Origin: Psammoneis japonica
Taxonomy: Eukaryota
Assembly: GCA_008632985.1 (NCBI GenBank)
Contig: QPGO01000069.1
Coordinates: forward strand, 248,001 to 312,000
Length of the DNA stretch: 64,000 nucleotides
Direction: 5' to 3'
The translations under genes were made by a program, and so were the position numbers. Every line of letters begins with the position of its first letter. Position 1 is the stretch's first letter. Positions 9,283 through 64,000 of this stretch are shown here, in pieces. The notes under the pieces were generated by a model. It saw nothing but the letters and a program-made list of their open reading frames with translations, was not told the origin of the DNA and searched no databases.

Positions 9283-9285
<3 letters not shown>

Positions 9286-39685: not shown

Positions 39686-39824
39686 AGAGTTCATGTTTGA
39701 CATCCCATTTTGTTTGTTTGACTTTGCTCATGACACCCAAAACTCCACATTGTGCTGCCCATTTGGCTCATTCTGCACCGGAGTGAAAATGTCACTCAAG
39801 AAGGTGTTTGTTGCCACCCAATTG

Positions 39825-41861: not shown

Positions 41862-42215
41862 TTAAGAGACCTACAATGACGTCTACGCTATGTACAGTAA
41901 AAAGGAAAGACTACGAGTCGAAGACGACCTTGTGATGCAGCTCCCTAACCTACCCGGATGTGGACTCTCAAAACCTTTCGCAAGTGGATCTTTCCAAATC
42001 TGGCAATGAACTTTAGTTTCTTCCCGATGGGAGGGGTTCGCATGCCACAAAACTCCTTTCAAGGAACGAACGAACGAAGGAACGCACGCACGCAAGATGG
42101 TCAAGACGGTGATTTCGGTCGATCCTAAAGTGGAGCCGTGGAAGCAAAAGAAGACTCCGCTCCCACAATCGCGGGCACCCGGATGTTCCTCCCGTCGCGA
42201 CGGTGAACTCAGAAC

Positions 42216-42439
42216 CGAGTAAATCTAGCTGCCGAAGGCTCAGCCACTCACAGTCTTAGTACGATAGCGCGAATACAACCAATAAGATGCTTCTAGGCCT
42301 GTTACAACTACAACAGATGCAACAAGTGAAAACCATTCTGTGGTCATCGGCATTTTGGTCCGCACACCAGTCACAGTTTCTCCACAGCACCTCCTGCTAG
42401 AGCACACTAGACAGTCCCTGATACATCGGATTTCACTCG
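42216..42439 (-). repeat. 3' LTR (224 bp) of the copia element; PPT GAGGGGA on the minus strand at 42441-42447
   Basis: cgagtaaatctagctgccg...gatttcactcg; direct repeat of 48489-48711. Confidence 0.92.
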
Positions 42440-42624
42440 GTCCCCTCGAAATGTGCCTGACTCGTAAGGCACAATTCGAACCAATGCTGCATCAGCAGTC
42501 TAACTCAAACATCTTGACTCATCAATCGACGTAAAAACCCTTGCCAGGGAAAAGCCGCCAATCCTCTGTGCATGGTGCAAACCCTCACTGGGGAAGAAAC
42601 TCACCACCGCTTCACGTGTCCATC

Positions 42625-45600
42625 TCAATGCGTGAACTTGTCTAACAGAAAATTCCGTCTGATGGACGACATGACCTTCGTGAACAGATTGCCAAGGTTT
42701 GTCTCTGTTCCCTCCTTTGCAATCCCAACAGTCCCCGCAGCAACAGCTTCGCGGTTGCGGTGACACGCAATGGAGTGATGCTTCTTCTTGAGTGTAGACT
42801 CAGGAATGGAGCAATTCTTGTAGACGGCCTCATTGTCACAGAAGACATTTGTTGGCCCTTCAATCGGCACTCCAAACATTCGAAGCTTGCATTGCAGGCC
42901 CTCCATGAGCTCAATGGCATTCTTGAGTGCAACAATCTCAGCCCCAAATGTGCTGGCCTCCACGGTGTTCTGATGCTTCGAGTGCCACACGATGGGTGCC
43001 CGGTTGACAAACATCAAGACACCTGCATGGCTGCGACGATCGGCAACATTTCCGGCATGGTCAGCATCCACAAAACAATGTGTCGATGCCACATCACCTC
43101 GAGCTGGTGGTGCATTTGTCGGAATGGCTTCTCTTGCATCTCGGTGGAAGTCGCGCCAGTCGCACTTCACGAATCGCGATTCATCGATCTTGGGATGAGC
43201 CGGATCAAATGCTGCTTGGCACTTTGGAACCTGTTTGGGGTGTGCAAAGATGTGCAACACCTGTTCCAGATGACCAATGCAAGGAAGAGCGAGGTGAGCA
43301 GACATTGACGAAACCTCCAAATGGGTGTCCACTCTGCCGAGTTCCACAGCCCAAACCAGTGCGCCAATCAGCTCTTGACAGCAGTGAAGTCCTTCAGCGT
43401 CCAACTCGCCAGTGGTGTCTAACTCGGGTTTGCATCCACTGCTCAATGGGGTTGTTGCCTTGCCAGGCAGATGTTTCCCCTCCTTGCCAAGCCTGTCCTC
43501 TACGTTTTGGACAGCGGACTTGCAGTGCTTCTCTGCAGACATTGCCCAACAGGCAGTCCCATTGGCCAAAGTCATCTTGGAAAGCGCAGCACCGAGATGA
43601 GTTTCCGGCTCGGCTGCCTTGTCACCCTTGAGCTTGAACTTGGACCTGATGCCATCCATCGTCTTCATGGGTTCGTGACTGATCGACAGCACGTCGTCCA
43701 CACAAACTAAAATGCATTCGTAGCACTCGAATCCATCGGGTTTCACCGCAGGTCTCATCCATGCATCCGGATCGGCCTTGCTTGGTTTGCACCCTAGATC
43801 ATAAAGCGTCTCCACTGGGAATGCCCTGAACACTGCTCCGGAGCTCTTCAATCCGTGTGGAGCCCTGACCACAATCATGATGCAACCTTCATCCTGCCAA
43901 ACTCGGAACCGGCTCTGGTCCAAATCTTCTCCCTGCAAGGGGCAGCAAGGCAGGCGTTCTGGATGTCACGTGCGAAGACTTGCAAGTCATTGAGCACAGC
44001 AAGCATCAGTGCAATCCTCACCAAATCTCAAGAGACGACAGAGGAGCAAGTGATGTGTGCGGGGGTTTCAGCAGTGTGGCCTCCAGCCACCATGCGAGCT
44101 TTGCGGCGGAAGTTTTCTCCCAACTTGATGTCAAAAATCATGTGACACTTCACTTCCTGGAAACCAGGCACCATGTCCTTAAGCTCCCCTTCATGCTTGT
44201 CAAAAGCAACCCGTGCATTCTTCATCTCCATGCAAATGGCGTCCCACCACAGGGTGTTGCCATTTGCGCGATCGATCTGGATCGCCTCCTCGACACTCTT
44301 TGGGATCCGCATGCCAAATTTGTGTGTTCGTAGCCAACACTTCGACTTGACCTTCGCAATGGAACACTTGCTGGTTTTCATGACATGAGGAACCCACCAA
44401 GCAAACGCTGGCTCACTCGAGATCTTGCGCTGAATGGCAAACTCGGCAACTTGGACTGGGAAGCTCTCCTTCGCAATCTTCAGGTCGATCCAAGTCGCAC
44501 TGCCATCCTTCCATTGGAACAAAAGTTCCCATCCTTTGGCAGTCTTGCGCCTCTTCCGAACGCCTTGCTCGGTCTCAAAGAACTCAGATTCTGGAACGTC
44601 CCCGTTGGTGCGGCAATCAACGATCTCATCAAATGAGACATGCCGGTTTCCGTCCTCGTCGATCTGAGCAAACACATTCATGGCGATGGAGTTAGCAGAG
44701 AGCGCAGCATGGTGCCCATCAGGGCACTCTACCTCATGCATCCTTGCATCAAGGATGGGATTGTCATTGGCTGTTCCTGTCGGAATGCCATTGGCATCTC
44801 TCAACCTCTTCGTGACATGAGCAAACTCAGGTCCATCATCATCTTGTGGAAGCGCAACTTCCATGTTAATGTGTCCCCAGTCCGCCGCCTCCGGTGAGGC
44901 TTCCTCGTTTTTCTTGTCGTCATCGTCATTTGCTGCCTCCTCTGAGGACATGACACAATCCCACTCATCGAGGAATTCATCATCGTATCCAAGGCAGTCC
45001 TTCCAGTCTTTGGGACTGATCTGCGATCCTCGTCGTCGGGGAAGTCTTGCTCCTTCAACCGTCGCTTGATCTCCTCGTCAAAATTGTCAAACTTTGCCTT
45101 TTTCTCTTGAGCAGCGGCTTCCAAATTGGTGACTTGTTGAACAGAAGTTCTGAAGTGACACTGCCTGTCTGTGTCAAGACGTGGTGCGACATGAGACTCC
45201 CTGTCCTGTGAGATGCACCAAGCCACCTGCCGAGCTTCTCGTCCCCTAAACCGGCATTCTCCCTGTGCCAGACCCAATCATAAAATCCAAAGTCAAGGTG
45301 CTCCAAGATGTCCACGGTCTCTCCGAGAACGTTCTCCAGTGGCACTCCAGCATCCAAATGATGTGCTCTGAGGAACGTGTGAGACATGGTCTCACATGTC
45401 CATGTAAATCCGCAGTCCCACAGTGCCACGGTGCTTGCTTCTTGACCATGATGCGGAACCACTTACGTCTGACCTCGCGCACAACCCCTTCTGCAGGATT
45501 CTGGTTGTGTCGATTGGGTTCGATGACACGACAATCTATGCCCTCCTTGCGCACGGTCTTCATGAACTCCGTGCCAGGTTTCGTTTGCTCCTTAGATCCA

Positions 45601-45990
45601 TCCATCAGGAGTTTCTCTGGCACGCCAAATTCCTGGCAAAACATCTTGAGAGCCTTGCCAGCCTTGCTCTTTTTGTCCATGGGATAAATCGCAGCGAAGC
45701 ATTGCTTGTTTGTGAAGATCTGAGCATGTCGATTGCCCTCCAACAAAACCACCTTGCCATCAACCATGTTGGTTGCCCATTCACCCCGTAACCTGGGCTT
45801 CGTGAACATCCGATCGGCCCGATGGCATCGACCCATTGGCATCAACGCTGACCTGATGAGCTTTTGCGTGGTCTTCTTGAGCATGCTGGCTGCTTGCTTG
45901 AGTCCTGTGCACCATCGTTCACTTGAGTCAGCAGCCGACACATCACTGTGTCTCTCCTCAGACATGAATGTCTTCAGGAGTGCCAAGTCT
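42625..45990 (-). pseudogene. Copia pol (integrase-RT-RNase H), frameshifted and hypermutated
   Basis: ORF fragments 45246-45986, 45055-45462, 44028-44951 and 42625-43938 carry copia motifs. The catalytic YVDD reads CVDD. Confidence 0.92.
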
Positions 45991-46767
45991 TCAGGTCCTT
46001 CGCCGATCGTTTCCGTGGCGGAGATCTAGGCTGTTGGCTCTGATTCCACATTGACGGCAGCTGTGAGCCTTGATTGGACTTGATCGACTCCATGAATGAA
46101 TTGCTCATCACAGCAGTCCCCGGATTGAGGGTCACTGTGGGCAGGATCAGCTTTGAACTCGTGTGTCAGATTGGTGTGGATCGTCGCAATTGACCGAACT
46201 AGCTCCATTTCCTCCTCCGCAGATCGTCGAGTTCCAACAGATTTGAACTTGACGGTCTGTGGATCCCAAGGTTGTTGGGAGGTCATCTGGATCTTGGGGC
46301 ATTCGTGCAGTTCCTGCTCTGCAGGAGCACGAGTTGCCGCAACAACATTGGTCCCCACAGCTTCAAGTGGCATCATGAAAGACTTGTCCTCCGTAAGGAT
46401 GTGCAGTGGTGAATCGGAGCAGGGGTTGTCCTGAACCTTAACACCAAAGTGCCACAGCTAGTTTGGGTTAACCAGCGAGTGCTCCATGGACTCCGGCATC
46501 CACAAGCCCTCGTGGAAGACCAGAACAAAAGTTGCTCCCGATGTCGGTGACGTCCACGCCGTGGCTGCCAAGACAATTGGGGCACTCTTGATGGACTCGC
46601 ATCCCTCGTTAAAAGGAGACACGCCTTGTTGAGGTAACGACCTCACAGATGCGTTTGTCGCAGGCACGTGGACACTGCTCCTTTGATTGACACGGCTGTC
46701 CCCCGCCCCATTGTGGCAACCACAACAAGAAGTTTATGATGCAACAAAGCAGGGTCCAGCTTGGCAG

Positions 46768-48198
46768 TCATTTCTGCTTTCCTCGGCGCTTTTCGCTGCG
46801 ACCACCGAATGCGTCTCCGGCATTGTCTCCGTCTCTGCCACCAACCCTTGATTCATCATCACCAGAATCGGCGCTGGCATCAGTGTTCAGGGTGGAGATT
46901 TTGCGGTTCGCTTCTTTAAGCTGCGACAACAGCTTCCGATTCTTCTTCTTGAGTGACTTGACGGATGCAGCACGGCGTTTGGTTGGTTTAGGTTGTTTGG
47001 CAATGCCCAGACGCACGCGCTCGTCGACAACCTTCTGTTTGTCCCCCTTGCTCAACTGGTGCCAATTTTTGTGGCACCCAGTGCCAATGGATCCATCCTC
47101 GTCACAAATGGCACCACCCTCTTTTCCTCCTCCAGAGGCAACTGCGGCAATCGCACGACAATGCGCAATCGTCTCTGGAAGGGTGGCGACTTTGGCAGCA
47201 AGATGATTGGCCGCCGTGGTGAACGTGATGCCTCCTCCAAACTCATTCTGTGCCTTCAAGGTCTCAACTGCCGCCTGCAGTGATTGGTGCTGCGTCTTCT
47301 CAAAAAGGATCCGTAATTTCTGGGCCTCCGTTTTCGGTTCGTCGTTTTCCTCAAAAATGTTGAACATTTCTTGGAGCTTGTTTGCCAACAAATGATTCAA
47401 ACAGCATGGCACGCTCACTCTTGCAATGGAGGGCATTCTCCATGCGCTCAGCTTCAGAGATGCGGCGGGAGGTGTTCCCTTCTCCCTGGTGATGGTCACA
47501 CAACGCCCTAAAGTCAACTCGTCCATTCTGTTGTTCTTGTGGTCTTTCAACCATTGCTCACTGGGTGTGCCCGTGGCAAGGGACTCGATGAGCAAATGAA
47601 CCGTACGAGTGTCAGCCTCGAAAGCTGGGCCTTGGAGGGGTGCACATGCAGTGCACTTCTGGACAAAAGTGTTGTGGCCTTGAGGTTTGGGTGCATCGTT
47701 TTGACGAATGCAATGCACTGGCAGCACGCCAGAGACTCCTGGCACAATGCCAAGCATGTTCATCAAACCAGTGCTCCACTTGACCCAATCCTTTTCGCTC
47801 TCCAACATCCCGGGTGATGCCTCTTCACTGAGAGAGTCAGCAGTGGTCTTGGTCTGGGAATGGATCTCGGCACGACTGAGTGCCATCTGGAGAGCAGCAC
47901 GGAAAGTTGCCTGATCAAGCCCATCCAGAGTGGGGTTCTCGCTCACACGACCAAAGTCCTGCACCCAATGGATGAGAGCTTTGAGTCGATGACTGCGGGC
48001 CAAACCAAAATGAATGCGCCCTTCAGCAACCGTCCTCCCAGCGCATGATGACGCAAGAGAATCGATGTCCTCTTCCTTGAGGTCTTCTAAATCGTCAAAA
48101 GACGCAAAGTCCGCCATGAGCGAGACTCGTTGAGCTGGATCAACAAATCCGATCCATTCGAGTGCTGTCTCGATGGGATCCGGAGGAGCAGCCGCCAT
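46768..48198 (-). pseudogene. Copia gag-like ORF (CoDi type), degenerate
   Basis: IHFGLARSHRLKALIHWVQDF, GVSG.P, APLQGPAFEAD resemble diatom copia gag. The 476-aa ORF contains no Tyr. Confidence 0.8.
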
Positions 48199-48474
48199 GG
48201 TGGCACCTGTGCCAGCAGGAAAACAGAGTCATGTGAGAGATCATAATTTAAAAAGGATGTCTCAGTCTGTGTTGACGACAACACATGGCCGTTGGAAGCA
48301 TGGAGACTGGCCATGTCTCCTCACTGCTCGTGCACCCACTGATGCCAGGCGATGACAATCATCATGCACCCTTTGATCGACCGGCGTTCGTCATCACAAC
48401 CCTGCCACATTGGTGCGATCATCTCTTCACAGTTGTTCAATGCTTTTCGTCAAACTAAACCTGAGTCAACGACT

Positions 48475-48485
48475 TGGCTCTGACA
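48475..48485 (-). other. Primer-binding site resembling the tRNA-iMet complement (TGTCAGAGCCA versus canonical TATCAGAGCCA)
   Basis: Lies 3 nt inside the 5' LTR and matches the TGGTATCAGAGC family except for a TA>TG change and the missing TGG. Confidence 0.6.
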
Positions 48486-48488
48486 AAG

Positions 48489-48711
48489 CGAGTAAATCTA
48501 GCTGCCGAACAGGCTCAGCCACTCACAGTCTTAGTGCGACAGTGCAAATGCAACCAACAAGATGCTTCCAGGCCTGTTGCAACTGCAACAGATGCAACAA
48601 GTGAAAACCATTCTGTGGTCATCGGCATTTTGGTCCGCACACCAGTCACAGTTTCTCCACAGCACCTCCCAGAGCACACTGGACAGTCCCTGACACATCG
48701 GATTTCACTCG
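48489..48711 (-). repeat. 5' LTR (223 bp) of the copia element
   Basis: Direct repeat of 42216-42439. Confidence 0.92.
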
Positions 48712-50479
48712 GAACAAAGGAGACGCTTTTCGGGTGGAGTGCGTGGACTGGACTGGTGGCCAAATCAAGAACAACGACAGCTCGGACAATGTCAAAAACA
48801 TCAATTTGAGCCAGGTCCACTGCCTTTCAGGTCCGATTGAAAATCCATTTTCGATTTTTTTTCTTGGAAAAAACAGACTGTGGCACTGATGAGCAAAAGT
48901 GAAAGCTCACATCATCAAGCTTTGCCCAGGCAACTCTTTCAATGGGATTGCTGTTGCACTGAGGACTGATTGTACATTGAACAACCCTGAAAACAGTGCA
49001 TGGAATTTTGATTGTGACAACAGCCAGTGCGCCCACTCAAATTGTGCCCACAAGTGGTGACCGAACTTCAGCAGCAGCACATTCTGTGTCGTTCGCACAT
49101 GTGCAAGGGCAACGGCAGAGACAGCACCTGCTTGCTGGGGCATCTGAACAGTGCAAGCTAGACAACAATTGTCAATGTGCTGCAACAAGATGCAGCTTCC
49201 AGCTTTCCAGAACATCATTGCTTGAGTCACATGCCACTCGCATGATTGCCAAGTCAGGACTTGCACAAAGAGCCATGAGCTGAGCAAATCAGCCTTTCCC
49301 ATCTCAGCGGATGACCGCTTCATCCCCAAGCATGCACAAATCAATCCAAAGCTTGGCTTCAGCAGCAATCTCAAGGATGATGCTAAAGGAAAAGAGCTTG
49401 CTGCTCAAATGGATGAGTTGGTTGACACCTTTCAACAGAATGCAGCCAACCTCATGCATCAAGCAGCTGTGTGTGAATTGGAGGTTGCGAGCCAGCTGAG
49501 ATTGGAAAAATTTGTCAACGCAAGTGTCACACTCTTCATGTTTTGCACATGCCATGTGATTGAACATGAAAAGAAAGGCACTGTGCCAACCTCACCCCAC
49601 GATGCCTTGGTGGCATGATTTTCACACCAAGTTTCTGGACAGACTTGGTGTCAACTGTTGCACTGACCACCTTGGCACTGCTGACAACAAGGTGATCCAA
49701 GAAACAGCTCATCAGCTGGAACCTCAACCAAGCACTGCCAGAAAACTCCCTGCAGGGCAGTGACCAAGTCTCCCAGGACTCTCAAAGCTCCTCCCAGGAA
49801 ACTCACCTTGACACTCAACCTGACAATGACACAGAAGCCCATTTGCACCAAAACAGTGAGAAGCAGACAGCTGCAGCAATCACCCAAGAAATGGACAAAT
49901 TCTTTCAAGATGTGTTGTTGACCTCCAAGCATCCTTCCATGCAAAAGAGCAGCAGAACTCTGCTTGTGTCAAGACAGCTGCCAGGTGGAAGAAGCACAAA
50001 ATGCTGAAAGTGGCAGATGCTGCCACCGCCACCCTTGAAGATGAGCCTGTGGTGCCATCCCCTGCCATGGAACAGGTGGCACACAAGGCTCTGGAGAAAG
50101 CAGGGCCAAAGCACTTCAAGCAACAGCTGAAAAAAAATGAACAGAAAAGACTCCAAGAGTTGCCAGGAAATCCAAAAACTGGTGATGTTCACACAAAAGA
50201 CATTGCAACCAATGCTGCACAAGAAAAAGGACAAGGGAAATTTAAACAACCTCCCAAAGAAGCAAAAGCATGCCCCTGCAAATCAGAAAAGAAGAGGAGC
50301 ACATCAAGGAGGACAGCGCAACGATGGGCAAAGAGGAACAAAGAACACAAAAAAGCAATGCAGGTGTGGCACCACCACAAAACAGCTTTGCATCCCATCT
50401 TGATGGCCATTCAAGAAACAGCCAACTGCTGCAGACAAGCGCACGGCTTTGCATTGGACTCAGAAAAGCCACCAAAGGA

Positions 50480-50920
50480 GATCACCACCACTGCACTGGG
50501 CACTGTGAATTCCACCAAATGTTTTGCCTGCCCAAAGAACCTGGCCTTCCACAACCCATGCACAGGGCTGCAACCACCCCCAGGCCTTGGTTCATTGCCA
50601 GGTTTTGGCCATGAGTTCTGCATTGAGTCAGCAAAACCCTTCTCTCACAACAGACAATGCACGCAGCAATTGTGACAGTCCATGCACCTGAAACACTTCA
50701 TCAACAACTCGGACTTAGACCTTGGTGAAGACTGCAATCCCAACCTCTGTGTCCCATCCAGCTTCAACCCTCCTCCAATCGAGACTGGATCCATTGAACT
50801 TTGCATGATGAACTTTGTAAATGCAGCAGACTGTGGCAGCCAACAAGCCTCCAAGAGAAGATCTCACTTCAATCTCTCCCCAAGACAATGTCAAGCCCTC
50901 CGCAATCTGCAAAAGGATCT
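50480..50920 (+). mobile_element. Truncated Penelope-like retroelement fragment (region N-terminal to the RT), degenerate
   Basis: PKNLAFHN.C..LQPPPGLGSL.G.G..FCIE, CNPNLCVPSSFNPPP (cf. YNPKLYIxSxWxPP) and NLSPRQCQALRNL. The match ends before the RT core. Confidence 0.55.
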
Positions 50921-53926: not shown

Positions 53927-54251
53927 TTGCATCAGTACATTGATTGAATTGTTTGATGAGTGTGTGCTAAGGTATCACTCGCCCTCTTCGGGGATTGTGA
54001 GGCAGTACCTTCAGTGCACCTTCGAATGCACGCTTTGTACAATACGTCATGCACGCTTTCGACAATTTCACATGGCTCAAGGAGTTTGCTAGACTGGCTC
54101 TGCAGGTACAAGTACCCTACCCGCCGCCATTTTATTGTGTGTGCATCGTTGCATCGTGCATCCCAATCCGGCCATCATCAATCATCAGTGCATGCGATCC
54201 GTCGTGCATCTCATCCATCTTCGCACAACACCCCTCTGAGAGTCTACCATA

Positions 54252-54604
54252 CTGTATGGGGACATACATGATAAATTTGACCAGTGGTCAAAAATGTGTG
54301 TACATTTTGTACCATAATTCTACGCTGGTAGAAGTTTAACTTTTACGTAAACTTTTGTATCGATTTTTGGTACAAATTTGCACGGTTTTAACGTCTTTAA
54401 CGGATTATTTGAATTAAATAACGAAAAGCGCATGCCTCATTTATAGACCTATAGGGTATGAATAAAAAGTTATTCAAAAACGTTAAACTATGTAGAAAGA
54501 CGTTAAACTTAAACATTTGTAGTACGAGGATATGTATGTACCGTAGCATTCTACACGAGATTTTGACCACTGGTCAAATTTATCATGTATGTCCCCATAC
54601 ACAG
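54252..54604. mobile_element. MITE-like element with 41-bp perfect inverted repeats flanked by TA (Tc1/mariner-like)
   Basis: 54253-54293 (tgtatggggacatacatgataaatttgaccagtggtcaaaa) is the reverse complement of 54561-54601. AT-rich non-coding interior; TA on both outer sides. Confidence 0.8.
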
Positions 54605-54744
54605 TACGTAGGAATGACTTCCTTTTATGTAAAATATAAATACTTTTATTCAACGATATAATATAAACATTAACTACGAAGTAAGTAGTCTCACGTGTTC
54701 CCACGTGATCGACTCACTCCGCGGCCGCTCCCAGTTCTCCTCGC

Positions 54745-55690
54745 AGTTCACAAGGACACCATGCGCGAAGTGAAGCAAGAAGTAGCCGATCGAAAAGCTA
54801 TAGCGCACGGGGAGACCCTTAAAACGATCCTCAGGACCCCACCTGACCTCCAGGCCAGAGCTGTCAAGCGCAGCACCAAGACTGGCGCGTGGCTTTCAGC
54901 ACACCCTTCGACACTGAATGGCGCGGAACTCTCGTGCCAAGAGTTCCATGACGCGCTCTTCCTGCGGCACAGCCACACTCCACCCAACCTCCCGCAGCAC
55001 TGCAATGGATGTGGATGCAAGTTTACGATGAACCACGCCCTTCAGTGCAAGAAGGGCAGCCCAGTCATCTCACAACACGATGAAGTGTCCGTGACAACCT
55101 GGGTGGCCCAGTGGGCAAGGCTTGCAAACCTTCCTGTGCACGCGACAAACCCCTGATCAACCCCACCGGTTGCAGCACAGGAAGCTCAAGCACCCCCACC
55201 AGTTCTCCAGGAAACACTGACTCCAACAAGTCTGAGGAGATGGCAATCGCGGGGACCTTCTCTGCATGCAATTTTGGGACAGAAGGACAGACATGGTGAT
55301 GGACATTGCATCCCTGCCCTGACCGGACGCAAAGTCACACCCATCCAAAACACCAGAAGAAGTTCTGGCAAGCCACAAATGTGAAAAAAAGTGTGAGTGC
55401 CTCAAGCCCTGTCTTGAGCAGCACCATCATTTTGCGCCCTTCGCAGTGTCATGTGACGGACTTTTCAGCAAGGAAGCCAAGGCAATGCTCTGCAAGATGG
55501 CATCGATGCCATCAGACAAATGGCAAAAGCCACACTCTGAAGCATGCGGCCACATCAATGCAAGAATGAGCATTGCCACAGTCCGGGCAACCCACTGTTG
55601 CCTCAGGGGATCCCATGTTCCCGCCTCTCAGATCAGCTCCAGACGACCCCAGTGGGAAGATGGCGCCGGTCTGTCCCCACACAGACACCA
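54745..55690 (+). mobile_element. 3' fragment of an RLE-type (CRE-like) non-LTR retrotransposon, degenerate
   Basis: TGAWLS..PSTLNG.ELS.QEF.DAL.LR, C.GCG.KF...HAL.CKKG zinc knuckle, RGDL-like endonuclease region, DGL..KEAK, ARMSIA.VRATH.CLRGS. Confidence 0.85.
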
Positions 55691-55799
55691 AAGGACCCCA
55701 ATCCAATCAACCCCCACCCTTCCTGACAGCACACCAACTGACTGTCCACCAACACCACCAATGTCATGCCCAGAAGATGACAAAAACCTGCCACCACAC

Positions 55800-58700
55800 T
55801 GAATGCGGCGCCACAATCAACTCAAATGTCGCGTGCACAGCCTGCGATTTGCGTGCAACAACTGCCCCTCACTCACATGACTGCATTGATGCTGCATTTT
55901 CTGTTGTCATGACAAGGAAGTGAGCCATGTTGCATCACTTTTTCTGCTCATGGAAGAGGGCAGATGGATTTGAAATGCTTGGAAGATTCAAAAAGCAGCA
56001 CAAGGAATCAACACCAAGTTTGTGCAGAAAGAGAGCAAGTCAACCCAAGTGTTCTTTGCAATCTGGTTGTCCCCAACTTCATTGCCTTGGGAACTTTTTT
56101 GCTTTCACTGCAGCTGACAAAAATCAGTTGTTTGGGTGCTGGTGCATCAGCACAGCAGAAACTCTGACAGGGGGCTGGCCCACACACTCCCAGCACACCG
56201 GTGCTGTTGATGCAGTTTGGGAGGGGATGTCCAGGACAGGCCAGAACTGGTGTGCCATCATCAGATGAAGCCTGCCCAAAACAACTGGTTGTTGCTCTTG
56301 CAACTTGCACACAGCATTCCAGGCAGCTGGGTTGGCACTGTCCTTCAATGCAGGGTTGCAGCATGACAGCCATCTGCACAGATGGTGAGCAGAGTTTGTC
56401 AAGTGGTCTTCCACTTGACTGGTGAGTGTGATTGTTCTTTGCTTGCATTCATCTCTTCATTTGCAGATCACTCAAATTTGGTCTTTCACATCCTGTCAAC
56501 ATGCCTGTTGTCTCATTTGTTGATTGTCATGCCCATGCATGGCTGTGCTGCATTTGTCCCAAAGATCTTGCCACTTCACCCAAACACACTGGTCCATCCT
56601 TTGTGTGTGGTGACTGCAAAGCTGAGGCCACAGGCCGTGTCATCAAAAATGACACTGCACCTGCAAGCTGAGGTGTTGCCAACTGACTTTTTCTTGAGAG
56701 TCTGCAAACTTGGGCTGCATGAGAAGATGATGCCAGCACAAGTGCAGAATTTCATCACCCAAACACACCAGTCCATGGCAAATGCACCCCAGCTGCGCTC
56801 CTTTGTGTGTGGAGACTGCAGCAAAGCTGAGGCCACAGGCCAAGTCATTGGAAATGACACTGCACATGAAAGCTGAGGTGTCTCCAACTAACTTTTTTTT
56901 AGAGTCTGCAACCTTCTTGAGCTTCATGAGGAGAGGAGATGCTGGCATGAACGCAGAATTTCATCACATGGTTGCTGCTCTCCTGGGTGGCTGGGTGGCC
57001 AACAGAAGAGCAAGCTCTGAGTGGCAGCAGCATGTTGCACAGATCATCTCACACAACTCTTCTTGTGGTGGAGACCTTGGAGAGAGACAAACAGCACCAG
57101 CTGGAGTTGTGCATGCACTGGACCATGCCTGCCCCATCTGTTTGAAGGAGAACAGCAGAGTGCACAACAAGGCATGGGAGGGCAGTTTGAGGTGACAACA
57201 ACAATGCCATGGGCTGGCACAGCAAGGCTGTCAAAATGGCGATCATGATGACAAAGCACAGACCAGCCATTGGGTCTGCCACCACTGTGATGTTGTGGAA
57301 ACACCCTCTGCATCAGAAGAATCAGGATGAGCCATGAGGATTGTGCACTTTGTGCTGGCTGCTCTGCTTCTTGTGCATGCCACTCTTTTCATTTTGCCCT
57401 TGTTTGTCATCAGAGGTGGAGACAATTTAGCTGGGGCTCACTCAAATCATGTGGGTCAAATCTGATGTTTCCACACAGGTTTGACCTGAATTGTGGCCTG
57501 CTGGGTCATGGTTCATTGCAGTTTGGGTGAGCCACACTGGTGTGCCAAATTTTTCATGCAGCTGTGCCTGTCATTTCCTGTTGTCACACCACACAAATGA
57601 CAACCACACTCATGACATTGATGCATTGTTGCATTGCAGCAAACTTTCATTTCATGTTTTTGATGCGTGCTCCCATTTTTTAATGCATTTTCTCTGCCAG
57701 TGTTCAACCATCCAAATGTTGTTTCACATGGTGAATGTCTTTGCCAAAACAAATGTCATTGCGCTGCTGTCATTGATGCATCTGCAAACCACATTTCCCC
57801 TGTTAATTGATGTCATCATCATCCTCCATTGGCACTGCATTGTCCATCACTTGCTTCTTTTCTGTCAACACATTCCCAGAATTGCTTGGACCACAGTTCA
57901 CTGCATTGCTCTGCATCCTTGCTCATCCTCTTTGTGTGTGTCTCCTTTTCCAATTCTTGGCACCTGTCAGTCCTTGTTTGTTCCAACCTTGGCCACTCTT
58001 TTTTGCCTTTTGTCCTTTTCCAGTGCTGTGCTGCACTTCACTGTTGTGCGAGCCTCTGTTCCTGCAGCTTTTCCTTTGCTTTCCCATGCACATGCACCCA
58101 CTTTTTCCAGATGTTCTCCAACATCAGCAGACCAAATGCCTTGTCACTTCCCCATGCCAACTTGTTCAAGCAACACCTTGATTGGAGAGCCAATGTTTCT
58201 GCAATGTCTTCCCAATGACAATGGGCAGGAAGTGGCAGGTGCAGCAGCTGTGTGCCTCCATGGCATTCCTTCCCTCCAGCATGTCCTCCAAGGATGGCAT
58301 GTTTTCATTGTCATGATTCAGCCTGCCTGTTTGTCCACAAAACACATCAACGTGACCTGGGTCAGTGTTTGTTGTCTGTGCTGTTTGCAGTTTCCCCTGC
58401 AGCAATGCTTGCTGAAGAATTCCTTCTTGTTCTCCACAGGCATTGTTCCTCTTTCTTGTTGCTTGTCTTCTCACCTTGTCCTTTGACATGTTCCATGTCT
58501 GCGTCCTGTTTCTGTCCAGCATGTTTGGCTGGACAAAACAGTCTCAACCTCCCTTTCATTGCTGATGGTGTCTTGTGGCCTTGTTGTTCAGAAACTTGCG
58601 CCAATGGAAAAGCACATTCTTGTAGCCAGCAGCTCTCCATGTCCCTGTCATTCATTTTGTCATTGCACCCTTTTTTCTTTCACTTGCCACTCATTGTGTC

Positions 58701-61700
58701 TTCTCCTTCATGTTAAGAGCAGATGCAGACAGAGTCACATTCATCACGACTGACCCCCCGTTGGTTTCCTGCACCATCATCAACACGGGTGCCTCCATCT
58801 CTGTCTCTTGCACTCCCCCTGTCATGCGTGTTTGCTTTGCAGTCCATTGCATGCTGCTGTCAGTGAGCACAATGCAAGCTCTGTTGGCACTTTACACTGT
58901 TGCTTGCATCTTCTCTAACAGGGCTTTGGAGTGGCTGGTTTTGTTGTCTGACAGTTCCTGTGCACAGGGGCATGGTGCAGTTGTGTGTTTTGGTGGTTTC
59001 TGGAGAAGCAAGACTTTTGTTCTGGGATGCACTGCAATCACAGTGCCAGGTGCTGCAATTCTGCACATGTGCACCTGGCAGCCATGTGCTGGATCCTGCT
59101 GTCTTCTGCACCCCTTCTGCAATTTAAAATTCTGGCTAGCATTGTGGCTGGTGGCCTGTTTTTTTTTCAAAACCAAGCTCTGATGCACAGTTGATTGAAG
59201 ATTCAAACACCATGTCTGTCTTTCCATCACACGTCAGGTCACTGCACCCTTTTTTCATGCACAAATCTGTGGTTTGTTTGAGTCACGGTGAGGTGGCTGC
59301 TCCCAATTCATTCAGCTGGACTGCTGCTTTGATCCAGGGCATTTGACTTGCTTCATCACCCCATCTGGCAGTCTGGGGAAACTGACCCCTCTGTTGGAGT
59401 GATCTGAGTGTCAATGTCATGCTCACTTGTTGCTTTGCAGCTGACATCCTGCAAACCAGAAGTGTGCAAGAAGGTTGTCAGAGCAGTCAAGCATGCCATT
59501 AAATGAGTGTGATGTGCCTTGCACACAATCCACAAAACACTCCACATGAGTGTGACAAAGCCTCTCTGTCACAGCTGGACTGTGCTGGCCTGGGATCAGG
59601 CCCACAATCATCCAACCATTGACCATCTCTCAAGTCAAATCAAAGAACCCATTCTGTGGCACAACCACTCACACACTGGCTTTGCAAGGTTGGTGTCTTG
59701 GTGGAAGAATGATGCCAACTTCATGGCTTTGCACACAATGCCATTAGCATCCATTGCAAGTCCATGTCAATTTGGCTCAACATTGGCAACATGACCACGC
59801 AGCTCACCTGCATGAGGGGACCGCACACCCCATGCTTGTTCATGCCATGTGCAGGTGATTGCAGCCTTGACTGTTTGCACAAGTCCATGGTGTCCTTCTT
59901 GTCTGGGGCCAACTGCAACATGTTGCCCCTCAATCAAGTGGTGCACTCATCCTTCATGTGCTCTTTGCTGTCTTTGTGTTGTCCATGCAACACACAACAA
60001 ACTTTGCCTTGCCACAAGGTTTGGTCTCCATGATGATTTCCCGAAATTCCTTGGCTTTGTGTGCTCGCCAAGCACACTTGCCAATCTCATGTGGCAGACT
60101 GTTGTCACTGTGGATGGAGAAGTGCAGTGGTGGAGATGTGCTCATGCACTTGAGGACTCCACAGTCCCTTGGTTGCTTGAACCCAGACTGCAAGTGCTTC
60201 AAAAGTGCCAGTCTGGAAAGCCAACACATGATTGGGTTGAGGTTGTCAAGAATTGCTGGGGTGGGGAATGCCACATTGTGGCCATGATGGTCCTTTGCCT
60301 CATGATGGAGATTGTGGGGGACAAGCTGGAGGAGCCACATGCCATGGTCTGTCAATGCAGTGGACTGCTGAAAAGTGATTCCAACAAGTTTGAGTCTTCC
60401 ATTGTGGAGTGCCAGCATGCAAAGACATGCATGTTGGGTGGAGACCCTGTTTTTCACCTTGTCAATCTTGACTGAATGACATTGAAAGTGTTGGTGTTCA
60501 AGGACATTTTCCATCCTTGAAGAAGGAACCATGGTGGGATGTTGTCACCAGAGAGAAGATGGGAGAGCCAGATTTTCCATTGTTGCAGGATGATCCACCA
60601 ACATTGTGCAAGGGTGTGAAGCCAAGATTGCACACATGGAGGCCACAAGAAACCCCAATCACCAAAAAACTCACCATGTCACAAGACTGGGTGTGTGCCA
60701 TTCTTTCACATGACAAATGGAGAAAAGAGTTCATGGAGACAACAGTGCAGCCAAACTGATCAACATGATGAGTGGTCAATGGAAAGCAACCAAATGGCGC
60801 CAGCAAAACCCAGCTGTCTTGTTCCAACAAGTTGGGATGACTTGGCCTTTTGAAAACAGCACTGCTGTCAAAAACTCACTTTTCAAACCATTGGTGCCAG
60901 AGGTGCAGACAAACTGGAATGTTGTTCTGGCATGGATCCAGAAGCTTGTTGAGGAAACAATTGTTGAAGTTGCTGACATGGCCATTGCCACAACATTCAG
61001 GGGAACAAATTCTTTTCAGTTCCGCCATCAAGATGTGATCTCCATTGCAAGGCATCACATGATGAAGGCCACCTTTCACTTCAGTCACCTTTCCTTCACA
61101 GCCTGCATGCATTGAAATGACAAGCAAACATGACCTCTTTGCAATGAAAAGATTCTGACTGATGTGTGTCATGTCAAAGAATTCATTGTCTGAGTGCTTG
61201 TTTTTCACAATGCAGTGGGATTTGCAAATGCAGTTTTCCCTGTCATGGTGTGCAACTGCTTCCCCACTTCAATTGGCAAAGGCAGCACACAGGGTTTTCA
61301 TGATGATCTCCACTGTTTCTTCCACAATGCTGTTTTGCCTTGGCTCAGAGGGAAGCATCAGAAACATCCACTCCTTCATTGCCTTGCTGGTTTTGGTGAT
61401 GTTGGCCAGGTTGATGAAACAAAAGGGAATGAATCAAATGGTTGCCTTCAACTCCATCACAGATTGGTCACACCAAGATCTTTGAAGTTCAGAATGAGAG
61501 GGGTCCTCGCAGAACATGCAGCCAGTGTGGCACTCTCCCATTTGAGAGTGGCAGGAATGCCCCAGTTCCTTGATGCCTTGCACTGACAGAACCACACCAG
61601 CCATTGAGAAACACTGTTCACACCAGATCTTTCAGCTTGAGAGGAAAAATTGATGACAATGCAGATGAAATCATGGCGAAAGTTTCCTCTTCTCTTTTTG

Positions 61701-64000
61701 AAGCTTGCAGTCAATCCATGATGGTTGATGCAACCAAATGGCCAGCATGGAATTTCCTCAGGTGAGTGGGTTTCAACTTCAATTGCTGTGTCCAACATGT
61801 GTGAAAATGGCGACAAAGTGGCAAGGCTGGGAATGTGCAAGTGCCCAAGCATGGAACAGCTGCACTGTGCCAAGGAAGGAAAGGCAGCAAGTTCAAAGAT
61901 GGCATTCACAGAGGAAAGCAAATGACCAAAAGCATCAAATTTGCACTTCATCTGCACTGCTTTAAAATTGGGGATGCACTTGTCAACCAGCGCGCTGGTT
62001 CTGAAGTGTTCCATGCTGACATGCTGATGCTTTTAGGAGACTGGGGAAGAGAGCTGCAAATGTCCCACACAGCATTGACATGTGGTGGACAAAAATGCTC
62101 TCCTCCACAACCTGTCTGTCATGCTCTTGACTCATGCATCCAATTGCAGCAGTGCACTGTGGCTCTCTGGCATTGCCAAAGGCACCCCAAGAGAGCAAAA
62201 CAATGTTTTTTTTTCATTTTTTCACAGAGCTGCTGGGCTTGTTGAAATGACTTTCCAAAAGATGCCAGCACACAACATCCAGGGTGGATCTTGTTGCGCC
62301 TTTCTTGGCAATGTTGTTGCTGGGGTGATTGTGGTTGAACAAAAATGCATCATCTGACTGCCAGTGAAGACCTTGAACTTGCTTGATCCAGTCAGAAACA
62401 AAACCAAATGCAGACAAAACTGTGGGATCCTCAACCAAGCACATGATGCCAATGCCAACACCATTGTGAGAATGTTTCCATCTGGTGCATTGACTCAAAT
62501 TTTTTTTTTTCATCATCCTTGTGCATGCCCAGCAATTGATGCTTGGTGAAACCAGAGGAGGAAGAAGACTTGGACACAGAAAAGGCATGACAACCATCCA
62601 ACTCTGTCAGATCATCAGCAGGTGTTTGGCTGGCTTTCCTGGAAAGAGCCCGGAAATCCAGATGATCAAGGATGGAATGACCAACATTGACAACATGGAA
62701 GCAATGATTGCCGTGGTCACTGTTGGTGAATGGACTTCAAAACTCAAGGCATTGCCAGTGTGATGGAAAGTGGCAATGGACTTTTCCATGTTCTTGGAGC
62801 AAGCCATCATGCAGCAACAATGCCTCCCGTCAATGCAAGTGGATGCCCAGCCAATGTCAAGATCAGGCAGCACCAAGTGAGTGCAAATGACATGCTGCAC
62901 TGCTGCTCTTGACTTGCCTTCCCCACATTGCACAATTCTGGTGCACTCTTCCAGAAGGCATCTTTGGGTTGCTTGCAGACCATGCCAACATTCTCAAGTC
63001 CTCTCCATTTGCTGGGCAATGATTTGGGGACAGAAGCAGAAGTCTTGGTGGAGACAAGAGAAGGAGCTGTTGCAGAAGATTGAGGCAGACTTTTTTGGAC
63101 TGGTGACCACTTGTTGGCCAAGGCCACTCGTGGGGACAGAGATGGCAGCAGAAATGTCAGAAGCACACCACACAGATGAAATGACATGCACAGGAAGCAG
63201 AGCTTGACTTGGAGCCAACAGAACAGTGAAAGGGAGTGACAAAGACATTGTCAGACCAGATGTGGCATTGAAAAATGAGGGTGGCACATTGAACAATTGA
63301 GCTGGAATGGCAGGAGAGGATGCACCCCCCACAGTGCAAGACATCAAGCTCAAATCAATGCAGGAAGAGACACAGTGGGACAAGGCACCAAATGCAAGGT
63401 TCCACCAAGCACACCTTCTCCTGATCTCTGCAAGATCCCAATCCCACAAAGAAGGATCCAGCTGTTGCACCAAAGCAATGTGTGGGTGCACAGTGGGAGC
63501 GGTCATGGACAGAGTTGTTTGAAGGCAACTGAGACAAGCAAACTGCACCGCTGACTGGGCAGGCATGGGATGAACCCTGGCATCATCATCAGAGAGCCAT
63601 TGAACCATCACAGTTAAAAGATGTCTTGTCTTCTCTGTCAAAGAGCTCAAGCCTGCTCTTTTTGCTGAAAAACACTCAAAATCTTTCCTCTGTCTGTCTG
63701 TGGTGTGATGGGTGAGCAAACAACATGGGAAAGTGACAACTCAGTGAGCTGGCCATGAGCAAGGCAAGGCAGATGGTGGCAAGTTCACTTTTGCTCCATT
63801 GTGGCTTCAACAGTTGACTTGCCAAGAAGAGAAAGGTCTGGGAGCACCAAAAGAGAAAATGCAAACTCAATCAAGAATGTGCAGTGCAGGCAAGCAAGGA
63901 AAAAGCTGTGAGGGCCCAGAAGACAACCTCCATTTCCAATGTCAATTTCTCATTGACAATCAGCAATGCCAATTTCTCAAGTGTTGAAAAACTTGAGGAG
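55800..64000. other. Heavily decayed repeat-like DNA, depleted of both TpA and CpG; family not identified
   Basis: Saturated with TG/CA, only Tyr-free spurious ORFs. Internal direct repeat at 56597-56710 / 56800-56914. Confidence 0.65.

Follow-up and report, generated by a model that had tools for sequence, protein, structure and literature searches.

Flank-dependent loss of TpA from transposon-derived DNA in Psammoneis japonica

Why should DNA lose nearly all of its TA dinucleotides and keep mainly those that stand between a pyrimidine and a purine (YTAR)? The question is raised by positions 55800-64000 of the Psammoneis japonica window analyzed here, which is a stretch of 64,000 nt from a diatom genome resembling those of raphid pennates. 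This region contains 16 TA in 8201 nt, compared to about 559 expected from its base counts (T = 2222, A = 2062), together with 41 CG. By tetramer count, 14 of the 16 surviving TA are YTAR: seven TTAA (57681, 57804, 58714, 59125, 59500, 61963, and 63615), four TTAG (56900, 57428, 59745, and 62034), two CTAA (56889 and 58916), and one CTAG (59137). The non-YTAR sites are a GTAG at 58623 and a TTAC at 58893. The probability of 14 in 16 by chance is 2.6e-10 if YTAR sites make up 15% of TA, as in the unmutated sequence of the window, 2.6e-7 at a share of 25%, and 6.5e-5 at 38%, the share in the left LTR described below, which is the highest of the unmutated repeats. A first-pass annotation of this DNA had proposed that the survivors are mostly YTAR, and the count agrees. 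All 12 sites that it listed are real and lie within 1 nt of their given positions, but four (57804, 58623, 58893, and 58916), two of them non-YTAR, had been missed.

TA-depleted blocks and spared sequence

The region belongs to a block (55000-64000) in which TA and CG are nearly erased and CA/TG are roughly doubled, with observed/expected (o/e) ratios of 0.01-0.06 for TA, 0.06-0.10 for CG, and 1.8-2.1 for CA/TG. The block retains 17 TA, comprising 14 YTAR, 3 asymmetric sites (YTAY or RTAR), and no RTAY. Beyond about 56.2 kb the block is near single copy, with a word depth of 66-180 compared to about 50-70 in single-copy genes. Depletion of both TA and CG is also found at 48713-50800, next to a copia element, where 6 TA remain (5 YTAR, 1 RTAY, 0 asymmetric), and at 38500-40800, which holds a 111-nt tandem duplication (39825-40046) and retains 11 TA (6 YTAR, 5 asymmetric, 0 RTAY). 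The same is true of 6700-16700, in which 30 TA survive (18 YTAR, 10 asymmetric, 2 RTAY). This last block contains a 181-nt tandem repeat (7476-8018) and a DNA-transposon relic bounded by terminal inverted repeats (TIRs; arms 9913-10048 and 15100-15233). Within the relic, 12051-15010 (minus strand) is collinear by tblastn with a protein of about 1100 residues that has no Pfam family, and none of 5 majority-Tyr columns retains Tyr. At 2751-4750, TA is depleted and CG partly so, with 11 TA left (5 YTAR, 4 asymmetric, 2 RTAY). The sixth block is the copia interior (42441-48485), in which 45 TA are left.

In the blocks, o/e ranges from 0.01 to 0.1 for TA and from 0.06 to 0.4 for CG, and the edges are sharp (about 250 nt at most). 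At a threshold of 80% likeness, the old blocks are single copy today. The genes of the window and a high-copy, MITE-like element of 360 nt (54243-54603) have been spared the loss of TA. This element has perfect 41-nt terminal inverted repeats (54253-54293 and 54601-54561, 100% identity), 28 TA per 250 nt, and a depth of 692; with the adjoining TA-rich stretch (54240-54720), it contains 8 YTAR, 19 RTAY, and 31 asymmetric sites. Being TA-rich and unmutated, it provides an internal negative control. It is followed by a high-copy, 5′-truncated TE fragment on the plus strand (54720-56200; ORFs 54689-55156 and 55323-55802; word depth 700-1800), in which TA is depleted from about 54830 and CG is partly retained.

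The best-studied block lies within an element on the minus strand (42213-48712) that, by its sequence, matches a Ty1/copia LTR retrotransposon in having gag and pol, with an RVT_2 reverse transcriptase, between two LTRs. The best 120 of 1244 proteins share 57-68% identity with the pol ORFs (42628-46025), and all have PF07727; the gag ORF (46771-48228) has 32 homologues, among which weak Retrotran_gag_2 hits occur. The copia ORFs of the window fall below Pfam detection, and their intact homologues themselves score only about 67 bits. The interior belongs to a high-copy family (word depth 1600-3600), with CG at about 0.8 of normal and TA down to about 0.2. The 3′ LTR (42213-42440, minus strand) is essentially unmutated and TA-rich, with 13 TA, while the 5′ LTR (48486-48712, minus strand) is a mutated copy that is 92% identical to it.

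Polarity and level of the change

Polarity was taken from the LTR comparison and from outgroup proteins. Over their full length of about 228 nt, the LTRs differ at 10 TA (3 of them at CTAG), 2 CG, and 1 transversion. All 12 transitions are TA or CG in the 3′ LTR and TG or CA in the other: the 5′ LTR has lost 10 of 13 TA, five to TG and five to CA, and two CG to TG/CA, and it keeps TA only as GTAA, CTAG, and TTAG. In the 159-nt LTR core, 7 of the 9 differences are at TA and 2 at CG. The earlier reading of seven changes at TAY holds as seven at TA, of which six read TAY on one or both strands, the seventh being CTAG; the four asymmetric changes that it quoted (ATAG>ACAG, ATAA>ACAA, TTAC>TTGC, and CTAC>CTGC) are correct.

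The coding sequence tells the same polarity. Of 36 conserved Tyr codons in the copia element only 3 are kept, with 15 changed to His and 13 to Cys, while Trp is kept at 30 of 30 and Gly at 69 of 72 positions. The YVDD motif now reads CVDD. With 33 Tyr gone, including that of the reverse transcriptase active-site motif, this copy would be incapable of autonomous transposition. TA accounts for 59 and CG for 31 of the 119 single-transition non-synonymous changes in the element, compared to 11 G>A and 3 C>T events outside CpG. Codon-first adenines changed to G in 12 of 17 cases when preceded by T and in 5 of 164 when preceded by any other base (P = 2e-11), so TA is the target, as had been proposed, and AA>AG is far from being as frequent as TA>TG. 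T>C changes are likewise concentrated at TpA (28 events, compared to 3 at TpC). Duplicated segments often show CA|TG double differences at adjacent positions, with 25 pairwise observations in which a tandem triplet counts as three pairs. Family copies in sequencing run X1 differ by 223-271 transitions per type compared to 18-39 transversions per type. The polarity of TpA to TpG/CpA in transposon DNA is therefore firm. Transposon-derived DNA in this window has undergone a dinucleotide-specific transition hypermutation, at the DNA level and after integration, in which A:T pairs of the palindromic TpA step change to G:C on either strand. Ordinary CpG decay accompanies it at a several-fold lower rate.

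The analysis covers one 64-kb window and one sequencing run (X1), the only run that contains this stretch, which may be the assembly's own data. Modified bases can also give systematic miscalls on some long-read platforms. A sequencing or assembly artefact of this kind, with modified bases miscalled as TG or CA, is nonetheless hardly credible. Contigs built from X1 by k-mers (word depth about 66) recover 6.4 kb of the block and differ from it 5 times, which speaks for accurate reads. Family copies differ among themselves at these sites, the amino acid replacements are coherent (Tyr to His or Cys), and the scaffold contains the N gaps usual in short-read assemblies.

Already integrated DNA is subject to the loss on either strand, in retrotransposons as well as a DNA transposon: the LTRs diverged after insertion, and the TIR-bounded relic is also affected. 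Editing of retrotransposon intermediates, whether of RNA by ADAR- or TadA-like A>I conversion or of cDNA by deamination, followed by fixation through reverse transcription, would share the 5′ U/T preference of RNA adenosine deaminases and would suit a best-studied block that is an LTR retrotransposon. However, it is contradicted by strand-symmetric products (31 TG and 28 CA on the coding strand), by LTRs of one insertion that differ at 10 TA in both directions, by a DNA-transposon relic that is equally depleted, and by a copia copy too damaged to transpose on its own, and we consider its chances minimal.

Context-dependent mutagenesis of heterochromatin with no dedicated enzyme, such as Pol-eta errors at WA or ultraviolet photoproducts at TpA that build up over a long period, is a more general alternative. 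Of all dinucleotide steps TA is the least stable, and it is scarce throughout the genome (o/e 0.4-0.7 even in the genes of the window); the old blocks are unselected. AA is no target, however, with A>G at 3 of 32 adenines after A compared to 12 of 17 after T; this departs from the WA pattern of Pol-eta, which had already been judged the poorer fit. We know of no transitions arising from TA photoproducts. The young copia LTR, with 10 of 13 TA lost and a single transversion at its other bases, goes far beyond any known spontaneous bias, the edges of the blocks are sharp (about 250 nt), and the TA-rich MITE is untouched 200 nt from a depleted block. Undirected mutagenesis of this kind is thus unlikely.

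Flanking bases, strand direction, and chemistry

The YTAR bias is common to all six TA-depleted blocks, with 70 of 119 survivors compared to 171 of 1139 unmutated TA. Asymmetric and RTAY sites number 42 and 7 among survivors compared to 606 and 362 (Chi-square P = 6e-31), where the expected NTAN counts are those of gene-rich sequence of the same window and not of true ancestors. Loss is graded in the order predicted, with RTAY lost fastest, asymmetric sites next, and YTAR slowest, and survival of the classes differs 10-30 fold. The TA left in 55800-64000 are almost all YTAR because this class is lost most slowly. The polarized sites of the copia element agree: 30 RTAY, 19 YTAY, 4 RTAR, and 6 YTAR have been lost, while 2 RTAY, 20 asymmetric, and 22 YTAR survive. 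At the -1 position, survivors have T, C, G, and A in proportions of.51,.28,.15, and.06, compared to.21,.21,.29, and.29 in unmutated sequence, and T is enriched at -2.

The contexts lost fastest are ATAT, ATAC/GTAT, and GTAC. The most protected are TTAA and TTAG/CTAA, in which a T-tract meets an A-tract (survivors resemble YY-TA-RR). CTAG is much less protected. Its survival is 0.08 compared to 0.49 for TTAA, about as poor as that of asymmetric sites, and three of four CTAG in the LTR have changed. YTAR is therefore the class lost least, as had been claimed, but it is not uniformly refractory. Where the 5′ T is intact, 11 of 12 TAY have changed (TAC 8/9, TAT 3/3) compared to 1 of 5 TAA (Fisher P = 0.01), and TAT-type sites survive less well than TAC-type sites. 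The preference is not absolute: in the 111-nt duplication, the copies differ by TTAA/TCAA, CTAC/CCAC, and two other transitions, so that the CTAC>CCAC counter-example named earlier is real and TTAA>TCAA is added to it.

It could be argued that the surviving TA are new, for instance from later TG>TA or CA>TA transitions, or selectively retained, for instance as functional TTAA/TTAG, and not refractory, in which case their flanks would say nothing of the mutator. Old blocks must have gained some TA, and the survivors lie in T/A-rich micro-contexts. However, new TA arising by transitions from the NTGN/NCAN pool of the blocks would be YTAR in only about 23% of cases (1227/5234) compared to 59-87% observed, the survivors are scattered sites with no apparent function, and the per-tetramer ranking of the old blocks recurs in the young copia element, where the lost sites are directly polarized. 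This makes new or retained TA a very improbable source of the bias.

Strand direction is less one-sided than the flanks. Where outgroup proteins polarize an asymmetric site, the TAY strand carries the change in 14 cases and the TAR strand in 9, which is not different from 50%; Tyr codons alone give 7 and 5. A model of independent half-sites fitted to survival predicts about 89% on the TAY strand, and the observed share is lower (P ≤ 0.0065). The proposal of TAY on one strand as the substrate is only partly supported and not established by these directions; the contrast between TAY and TAA at sites with an intact 5′ T speaks for it. Product bookkeeping favors the TAY direction in the old blocks, with a gain of about 624 YTGY/RCAR compared to about 264 RTGR/YCAY, while the copia element has no TAY excess (about 39 compared to about 50). 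Directions are also patchy. There are 20 strand runs compared to 30.4 expected (P = 0.0045), and pairs of events no more than 50 nt apart share direction in 23 cases and differ in 9. CG and TA events are uncorrelated in direction (13 same, 18 different).

Selectivity, strand coordination over short distances, and a rate approximately 300-fold above background substitution together suggest an enzyme acting on silenced chromatin and not passive decay. Its chemistry would be adenine deamination or thymine modification. In the preferred version, either DNA strand would undergo adenine deamination at 5′-T-A-(Y) in short same-strand patches (A>I, with I being read as G), and conversion near saturation in each round would blunt the direction bias at asymmetric sites. 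As a whole, TpA hypermutation with a flank-dependent rate and an adenine-deaminase-type enzyme on silenced DNA is given an even chance of being right. The strand direction counts against half-site deamination at TAY, as does the loss of CTAG, which is much faster than that of TTAA or TTAG and which nearest-neighbor additivity fails to explain. No natural eukaryotic DNA adenine deaminase is known to us.

Alternatively, TpA in silenced repeats may be modified enzymatically and symmetrically, like 5mC at CpG, and miscode as T>C on a random strand, with the flanks setting the susceptibility of the whole site and not which strand changes. A TET/JBP-type enzyme with a preference for R-T-A, for example, could hydroxylate thymine to 5hmU/5fU or a J-like base. 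This would reconcile the near-even direction at asymmetric sites with the large differences in class survival, and it fits the equal hits to both strands (31:28) and the co-occurrence of TA loss with CpG decay in the same domains. There is a precedent in dinoflagellates, where, according to the part of the source drawn on here, 5hmU is enriched at repeats and overlaps 5mC, and earlier work is cited for replacement of thymine preferentially in TA and TC (PMC11572971). Here, however, T>C is rare at TpC, the short-range same-strand runs are not predicted by random strand choice, and CG and TA directions do not go together. Near-complete T>C would also need an extra miscoding or repair step because 5hmU pairs like T, and no report of 5hmU or JBP in diatoms was found among the matches listed. 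Symmetric thymine modification is possible but clearly less probable than the adenine-deaminase explanation.

Comparison with known systems

Repeat-induced point mutation (RIP) in Neurospora and other Pezizomycotina resembles the present case in being confined to transposons and repeats, acting on integrated duplex DNA and both strands, producing only transitions, and being dinucleotide-specific, with sharp domain edges and destroyed coding capacity. It differs in product. RIP changes C to T at CpA and creates TpA, while here TpA is destroyed to give CpA/TpG, the exact reverse. In place of the TpA gain of fungal RIP, the blocks have a TA o/e of 0.01-0.1, and 28 of the 33 lost Tyr became His or Cys. 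Because the mutated base pair is A:T and not C:G, DNMT-like cytosine chemistry is not responsible. High-copy TEs have been mutated, and the high-copy 360-nt MITE and one LTR of a high-copy family have been spared. The sparing of the left LTR (42213-42440) and of the MITE was counted against the explanation proposed here.

ADAR and APOBEC also leave clustered transitions with nearest-neighbor preferences in retroelements, but they are strand-specific (sense A>G and plus-strand G>A, respectively), while the changes here are symmetric, disfavor a 3′ G or A, and extend to a DNA transposon. ADAR favors a 3′ G and, as far as is known, is confined to animals. Hyper-editing by ADAR does not agree with 31 TG and 28 CA on the coding strand or with the survival of sites with a 3′ G or A, nor does APOBEC editing agree with 11 G>A and 3 C>T events outside CpG beside 59 at TA. 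Native TadA reads U-A-C-G. Like TadA, ADAT2-3, and engineered adenine base editors, the present process targets A after U/T, and TAC is a good target. The natural enzymes act on the anticodon loop of RNA, whereas the changes here lie in both strands of chromosomal DNA at thousands of sites, with TAT at least as good as TAC and CTAG also hit.

The 5hmU and base J made by TET/JBP enzymes in dinoflagellates and kinetoplastids are alike in repeat-targeted T, TpA preference, and co-localization with 5mC on TEs, as far as the part of the source used here goes (PMC11572971). They are epigenetic marks that are not known to erase TpA, and their TpC preference is not mirrored here. In the literature searched, neither 5hmU/base J in diatoms nor a flank-selective repeat hypermutation that destroys TpA was found described. 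It is tentatively suggested that diatoms, or this lineage, possess a genome-defense mutator that mirrors fungal RIP, the most radical version being a natural DNA adenine deaminase. If so, the mutator would be a natural enzyme acting on both strands of silenced transposon DNA and turning A:T into G:C at TpA in short, strand-coordinated patches with a preference for R-TA-Y. It would run alongside but independently of 5mC-driven CpG decay, and in its radical version it would be, in effect, a native adenine base editor.

Decay of CpG through 5mC occurs in the same blocks and likewise acts at a symmetric, palindromic YpR step that becomes TG or CA at random. It is evident from the CG o/e of 0.06-0.4 and the 31 polarized CG events, and it accounts for the CG component only. 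It leaves TA alone, while TA loss is faster and in the copia interior occurs almost by itself. Pucciniomycotina (Microbotryum and Puccinia) have a TCG-directed repeat hypermutation (PMC3318451; PMC12730594), which in the parts of these sources drawn on here is likewise non-ascomycete, flank-dependent, and recognized purely from sequence; it consists of cytosine deamination, with no TpA component reported in those parts. Flank-preferring loss of CpG is also seen here, as CG in the blocks is lost faster when flanked by A/T.

Surviving TA sites

Between positions 55800 and 64000 of the window, 16 TA dinucleotides are present in 8201 nt, compared with ~559 predicted from base composition, and CG occurs 41 times. 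Fourteen of the 16 have a pyrimidine before and a purine after the TA (YTAR: TTAA 7, TTAG 4, CTAA 2, CTAG 1), the two others being GTAG at 58623 and TTAC at 58893. The first-pass annotation listed 12 sites, all of which are real, and overlooked four, two of them YTAR. Of the TA in the unmutated part of the window, 15% (171/1139) are YTAR; the share is 14% in the adjoining unmutated MITE region and 38% in the unmutated LTR, and for TA newly created by transition from TG/CA of the blocks themselves it would be ~23% (arithmetic on tetramer counts). A share of 14/16 is far beyond chance relative to any of these baselines (P from 2.6e-10 to 6.5e-5), and the idea that the surviving TA are newly formed is contradicted by these specific counts.

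Approximately half of the window consists of blocks that are nearly devoid of TA, in which CA/TG occurs at 1.4–2.1 times the expected level; most of these blocks are strongly depleted in CG as well. A 250-nt map of the window resolves six of them, with edges sharp to within ~250 nt: B1 (2751–4750), B2 (6700–16700), B3 (38500–40800), B4 (42500–48500, the interior of a copia element), B5 (48500–50800) and B6 (55000–64000). Together they retain 120 TA, of which 119 can be classified as YTAR (70), asymmetric, meaning YTAY or RTAR (42), or RTAY (7). The corresponding counts in unmutated sequence of the window are 171, 606 and 362 (chi-square P = 6e-31), where expected NTAN counts are taken from gene-rich sequence and the whole evidence is one 64-kb window. 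The YTAR bias is common to all six blocks together and is not confined to 55800–64000.

TA-free DNA lacks TAA and TAG stops, and long spurious ORFs therefore arise in it; in B6, where TGA is the sole stop type remaining, long ORFs are expected for this reason, and inspection by eye revealed no convincing ex-coding ORF there.

The copia element and the direction of change

B4 makes up the interior of a minus-strand Ty1/copia retrotransposon. Homologues of its gag ORF number 32, and its pol ORFs are 57–68% identical to PF07727-bearing proteins among the best 120 of 1244 matches. When 152 homologues were aligned to the element by tblastn, 884 conserved columns were obtained, 707 of them unchanged. 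Conserved Tyr is retained at only 3 of 36 positions (His 15, Cys 13, Phe 4 and Asp 1 at the others), while Trp is retained at 30/30 and Gly at 69/72, and the reverse transcriptase motif YVDD reads CVDD. The copia ORFs of the window contain 0.3–0.7% Tyr and 6–9.6% Cys plus His; the medians for 120 homologues are 3.5% and 4.0%. Among the 119 one-transition differences in columns with a majority of at least 60%, 31 are TA>TG, 28 TA>CA, 16 CG>TG, 15 CG>CA and 29 of other kinds.

The two LTRs (left, 42213–42440; right, 48486–48712) are separated by 12 transitions and one transversion. At every one of these transitions the left copy has TA (10) or CG (2) and the right copy TG or CA, which indicates that mutation of the right LTR and of the interior followed insertion. 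TA has thus been lost from these repeats rather than avoided. The reverse polarity, a RIP-like change of CA to TA in the left LTR, is ruled out both by outgroup comparison of the Tyr codons and by the CG sites; so is GC-biased gene conversion, as it has no TA specificity and CG>TG runs the opposite way. LTR-divergence dating of LTR elements fails if TA and CG sites are included.

Duplicated segments elsewhere in the window show 25 pairwise adjacent CA|TG double differences (a tandem triplet being counted three times). Such doublets are left where an ancestral TA or CG was struck on opposite strands in the two copies. The tandem repeat at 7476–8018 (three 181-nt units, 84–88% identical by BLAST) has units that differ mainly by adjacent CA|TG double changes and by CG/CA changes, and the stretch around it retains CG with TA nearly absent.

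In contigs of the single public DNA sequencing run that contains this stretch, for which no RNA run is listed, the region at 42.2–48.9 kb is high-copy, with a word depth of 1600–3600 versus ~50–70 for genes. Copies of this family differ at 223–271 places per transition type and 18–39 per transversion type in that run, which may be the assembly's own data and in which 40 of the 1233 variant places are itemised. An artefact is contradicted by specific counts. Within the window, tblastn with 152 copia-family proteins gave no match outside 42200–48750.

A Pfam search of 108 stop-to-stop ORFs of the window found no TE domains in any depleted block, the copia element included; such blanks are weak evidence, given that intact copia homologues score only ~67 bits for RVT_2 and nothing for the integrase. 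This diatom copia lineage is almost invisible to Pfam, with which the mutated copy in the window (42628–48228, minus strand) scores nothing. Tyr-less TE relics are missed by Pfam-based annotation, as with the copia element here.

Flanking bases and the strand attacked

Survival per site, relative to unmutated sequence, is markedly unequal among the NTAN tetramers of the window. In the old blocks (B2, B3, B5 and B6) it falls from 0.49 for TTAA and 0.39 for CTAA/TTAG to 0.09 for GTAA/TTAC, 0.08 for CTAG, 0.04 for CTAC/GTAG, 0.03 for GTAC, 0.02 for ATAG/CTAT, 0.015 for both ATAA/TTAT and ATAT, and 0 for ATAC/GTAT. The tetramers rank alike in the young copia interior, where the values run from 0.79 and 0.74 to at most 0.05. 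The symmetrised base at −1 of survivors is T in.51, C in.28, G in.15 and A in.06 (unmutated.21,.21,.29 and.29), and T is also enriched at −2 (.51 versus.27 in unmutated sequence). These flanks define the refractory context as a junction of a pyrimidine tract and a purine tract (YY-TA-RR); the sensitive context is alternating R-TA-Y.

The 5′ T itself is obligatory. At conserved Thr, Ile, Met, Asn and Lys codons, A>G at the first position occurs in 12/17 cases after T (P = 2e-11), compared with 3/32 after A, 2/63 after G and 0/69 after C. AA>AG is thus far from being as common as TA>TG, in line with the earlier annotation, and a WA-type motif is ruled out by the same contrast between A and T; Pol-eta-type synthesis, to which that motif belongs, is contradicted by specific counts. 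Among polarised sites with the 5′ T retained, 8/9 TAC, 3/3 TAT and 1/5 TAA have changed (P = 0.01).

The resulting flank rule is that RTAY is lost fastest, asymmetric sites next and YTAR slowest. Survival of the classes agrees with an additive model, the rate rising with each favourable flank, and the fitted half-site values in B4 are ~0.2 per TAR and ~1.8 per TAY (arithmetic). The main line of the rule first drawn from the survivors, with YTAR the protected class, is therefore right, with the qualification that CTAG is clearly less protected than other YTAR; in the LTR pair it has changed at 3/4 sites. The flank rule would be the fingerprint of the putative enzyme, and offers a guide to the choice of test oligonucleotides and a motif for scans of other algae.

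The first-pass annotation further proposed that the TAY strand is the substrate. At asymmetric sites, such a rule predicts YTAY>YTGY and RTAR>RCAR. The four asymmetric LTR changes that it cited do all run in this direction. Three cases are contrary: CTAC>CCAC in a 111-nt duplication, which the annotation had itself offered as a counter-example, TTAC>TCAC at 47826 and TTAT/TCAT in the tandem repeat. Tyr codons after C or T, where both outcomes are visible, became Cys in 7 cases and His in 5 and were kept in 3 (7:5); after A or G, 11 became His and 8 Cys. All asymmetric non-synonymous events are split 14:9 between the TAY strand and its complement, and the Tyr set combined with the four LTR and three contrary cases gives 11:8. 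None of these ratios differs from 50%, and all fall short of the ~89% that the fitted half-site rates predict (P <= 0.0065). The proposal is only partly supported by these counts. Product tetramers, whose baseline is unverified, favour TAY in the old blocks (a gain of ~624 YTGY/RCAR versus ~264 RTGR/YCAY) but not in the copia element (~39 versus ~50). CG changes in the polarised set are near direction-neutral (9:7).

Two readings of these ratios remain. In one, the duplex site is recognised and the strand is picked afterwards; in the other, recognition is single-stranded and each round of conversion comes close to saturation, so that the bias is blunted. Consecutive TA events in the copia element cluster by direction (20 runs versus 30.4 expected, P = 0.0045), and pairs of events up to 50 nt apart agree in direction 23:9, with no agreement beyond that distance. 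This clustering favours short strand-specific patches.

Targets, CpG loss and candidate chemistry

The elements struck include an LTR retrotransposon, a high-copy 5′-truncated TE fragment (54689–55802, plus strand) and a DNA-transposon relic (9913–15233, minus strand) bounded by 136-nt inverted terminal repeats that are 87% identical. Since several TE classes are affected, the process is independent of reverse transcription; RNA- or cDNA-level editing is contradicted by specific counts. The relic's interior is collinear with ~1100-aa proteins without a Pfam family (43 matches, best E=2e-23), and a Tyr analysis of B2 with these 43 distant homologues left just 7 usable columns, too few for use. 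The ORF of the TE fragment has a C-terminal region that is Cys/His-rich and looks conserved (…CNGCGCKF…HALQCKKG…).

Genes, the left LTR of the copia element and a MITE-like element at 54243–54603 are spared. The latter (360 nt, perfect 41-nt TIRs, high-copy in the sequencing run) is unmutated, with 28 TA per 250 nt at ~200 nt from the TA-depleted fragment. The mutated domain ends at the inner edge of the left LTR (42213–42500 versus 42501–48712), which retains 13 TA. As both LTRs come from the same high-copy family, copy number alone does not set the target; the spared left LTR could reflect chromatin-domain spreading, gene conversion or an assembly join at the repeat.

Loss of TA can be separated from loss of CG. 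TA is depleted in the copia interior, with CG at ~0.8 of normal, and in the TE fragment at 54720–56200, while old, now near-single-copy blocks have lost both. In the LTR, 10/13 TA have changed and just one base outside TA and CG; the per-site TA rate is, by our estimate, very roughly 300 times background, and the CG rate there is likewise well above background. CG events do not follow the direction of the nearest TA event (same direction in 13 cases, different in 18). CpG loss in B2, B3, B5 and B6 is itself flank-dependent, with the best survival at GCGC (0.47), ACGC/GCGT (0.36) and CCGG (0.35) and the worst at ACGA/TCGT (0.135), TCGA (0.15) and ACGT (0.16).

The transition process acts on DNA after integration, is confined to TEs, specific to TpA and dependent on the flanks, and affects both strands; we infer that it is enzymatic. 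Sequence alone cannot separate A>G at T-A-Y from T>C at R-T-A. Taken jointly with this process, deamination of adenine in DNA is the reading we prefer, at roughly even chances. The adenine in T-A-Y would be deaminated to inosine, a base that miscodes directly. This direct miscoding favours the reading, as do the strand coordination of events over short distances and the 5′-T requirement, which recalls adenosine deaminases.

Among known systems, fungal RIP is nearest in logic but opposite in chemistry, as it creates TpA whereas the process in the window removes it. To our knowledge, repeat-directed hypermutation is known solely in the form of cytosine deamination (in RIP, in the TCG type of rusts and smuts, and by APOBEC). 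Erasure of TpA by A:T>G:C transitions therefore implies a different chemistry, either DNA adenine deamination or a miscoding thymine modification, and we know of no natural eukaryotic example of either as a genome-defence mutator. If the chemistry is DNA adenine deamination, it would be categorically new.

The main rival, a symmetric miscoding thymine modification at TpA, appears unlikely but has a precedent in dinoflagellates, where, according to passages of PMC11572971, 5hmU marks repeats alongside 5mC. The same passages mention an older report of a TA and TC preference for this 5hmU; TpC is not a target here (3 events versus 28). Mutant TET2 is described in PMC11804724 as producing hmU/fU.

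No account of TpA depletion or A:T>G:C repeat hypermutation in diatoms or other algae was found in searches of openly available full-text papers. Term look-ups for TpA depletion, RIP-like mutation and A:T>G:C hypermutation likewise gave no mention in the searched text of two diatom TE papers (PMC2806351; bioRxiv 10.1101/2025.10.24.684338).

Relative to the window, a contig of the sequencing run shows 5 differences over 6.4 kb, three of which are itemised (57049, 58522 and 59138) and include one CTAG/CTGG and one TG/CG difference. Such differences suggest that the target dinucleotides themselves are polymorphic or heterozygous, and thus the process may be recent or ongoing.

The window is eukaryotic with few introns, and its long ORFs encode an ABC transporter, a P5A-type ATPase, a PPR protein, a PA-RING ligase, an inositol-phosphatase-like protein and SepSecS. 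The SepSecS gene fragment (20812–21819, minus strand) is 67–78% identical to matches among the best 120 listed, and all named ones listed are raphid pennate diatoms (Pseudo-nitzschia, Nitzschia, Cylindrotheca, Mayamaea and Seminavis). Its presence indicates that the organism has selenocysteine machinery.
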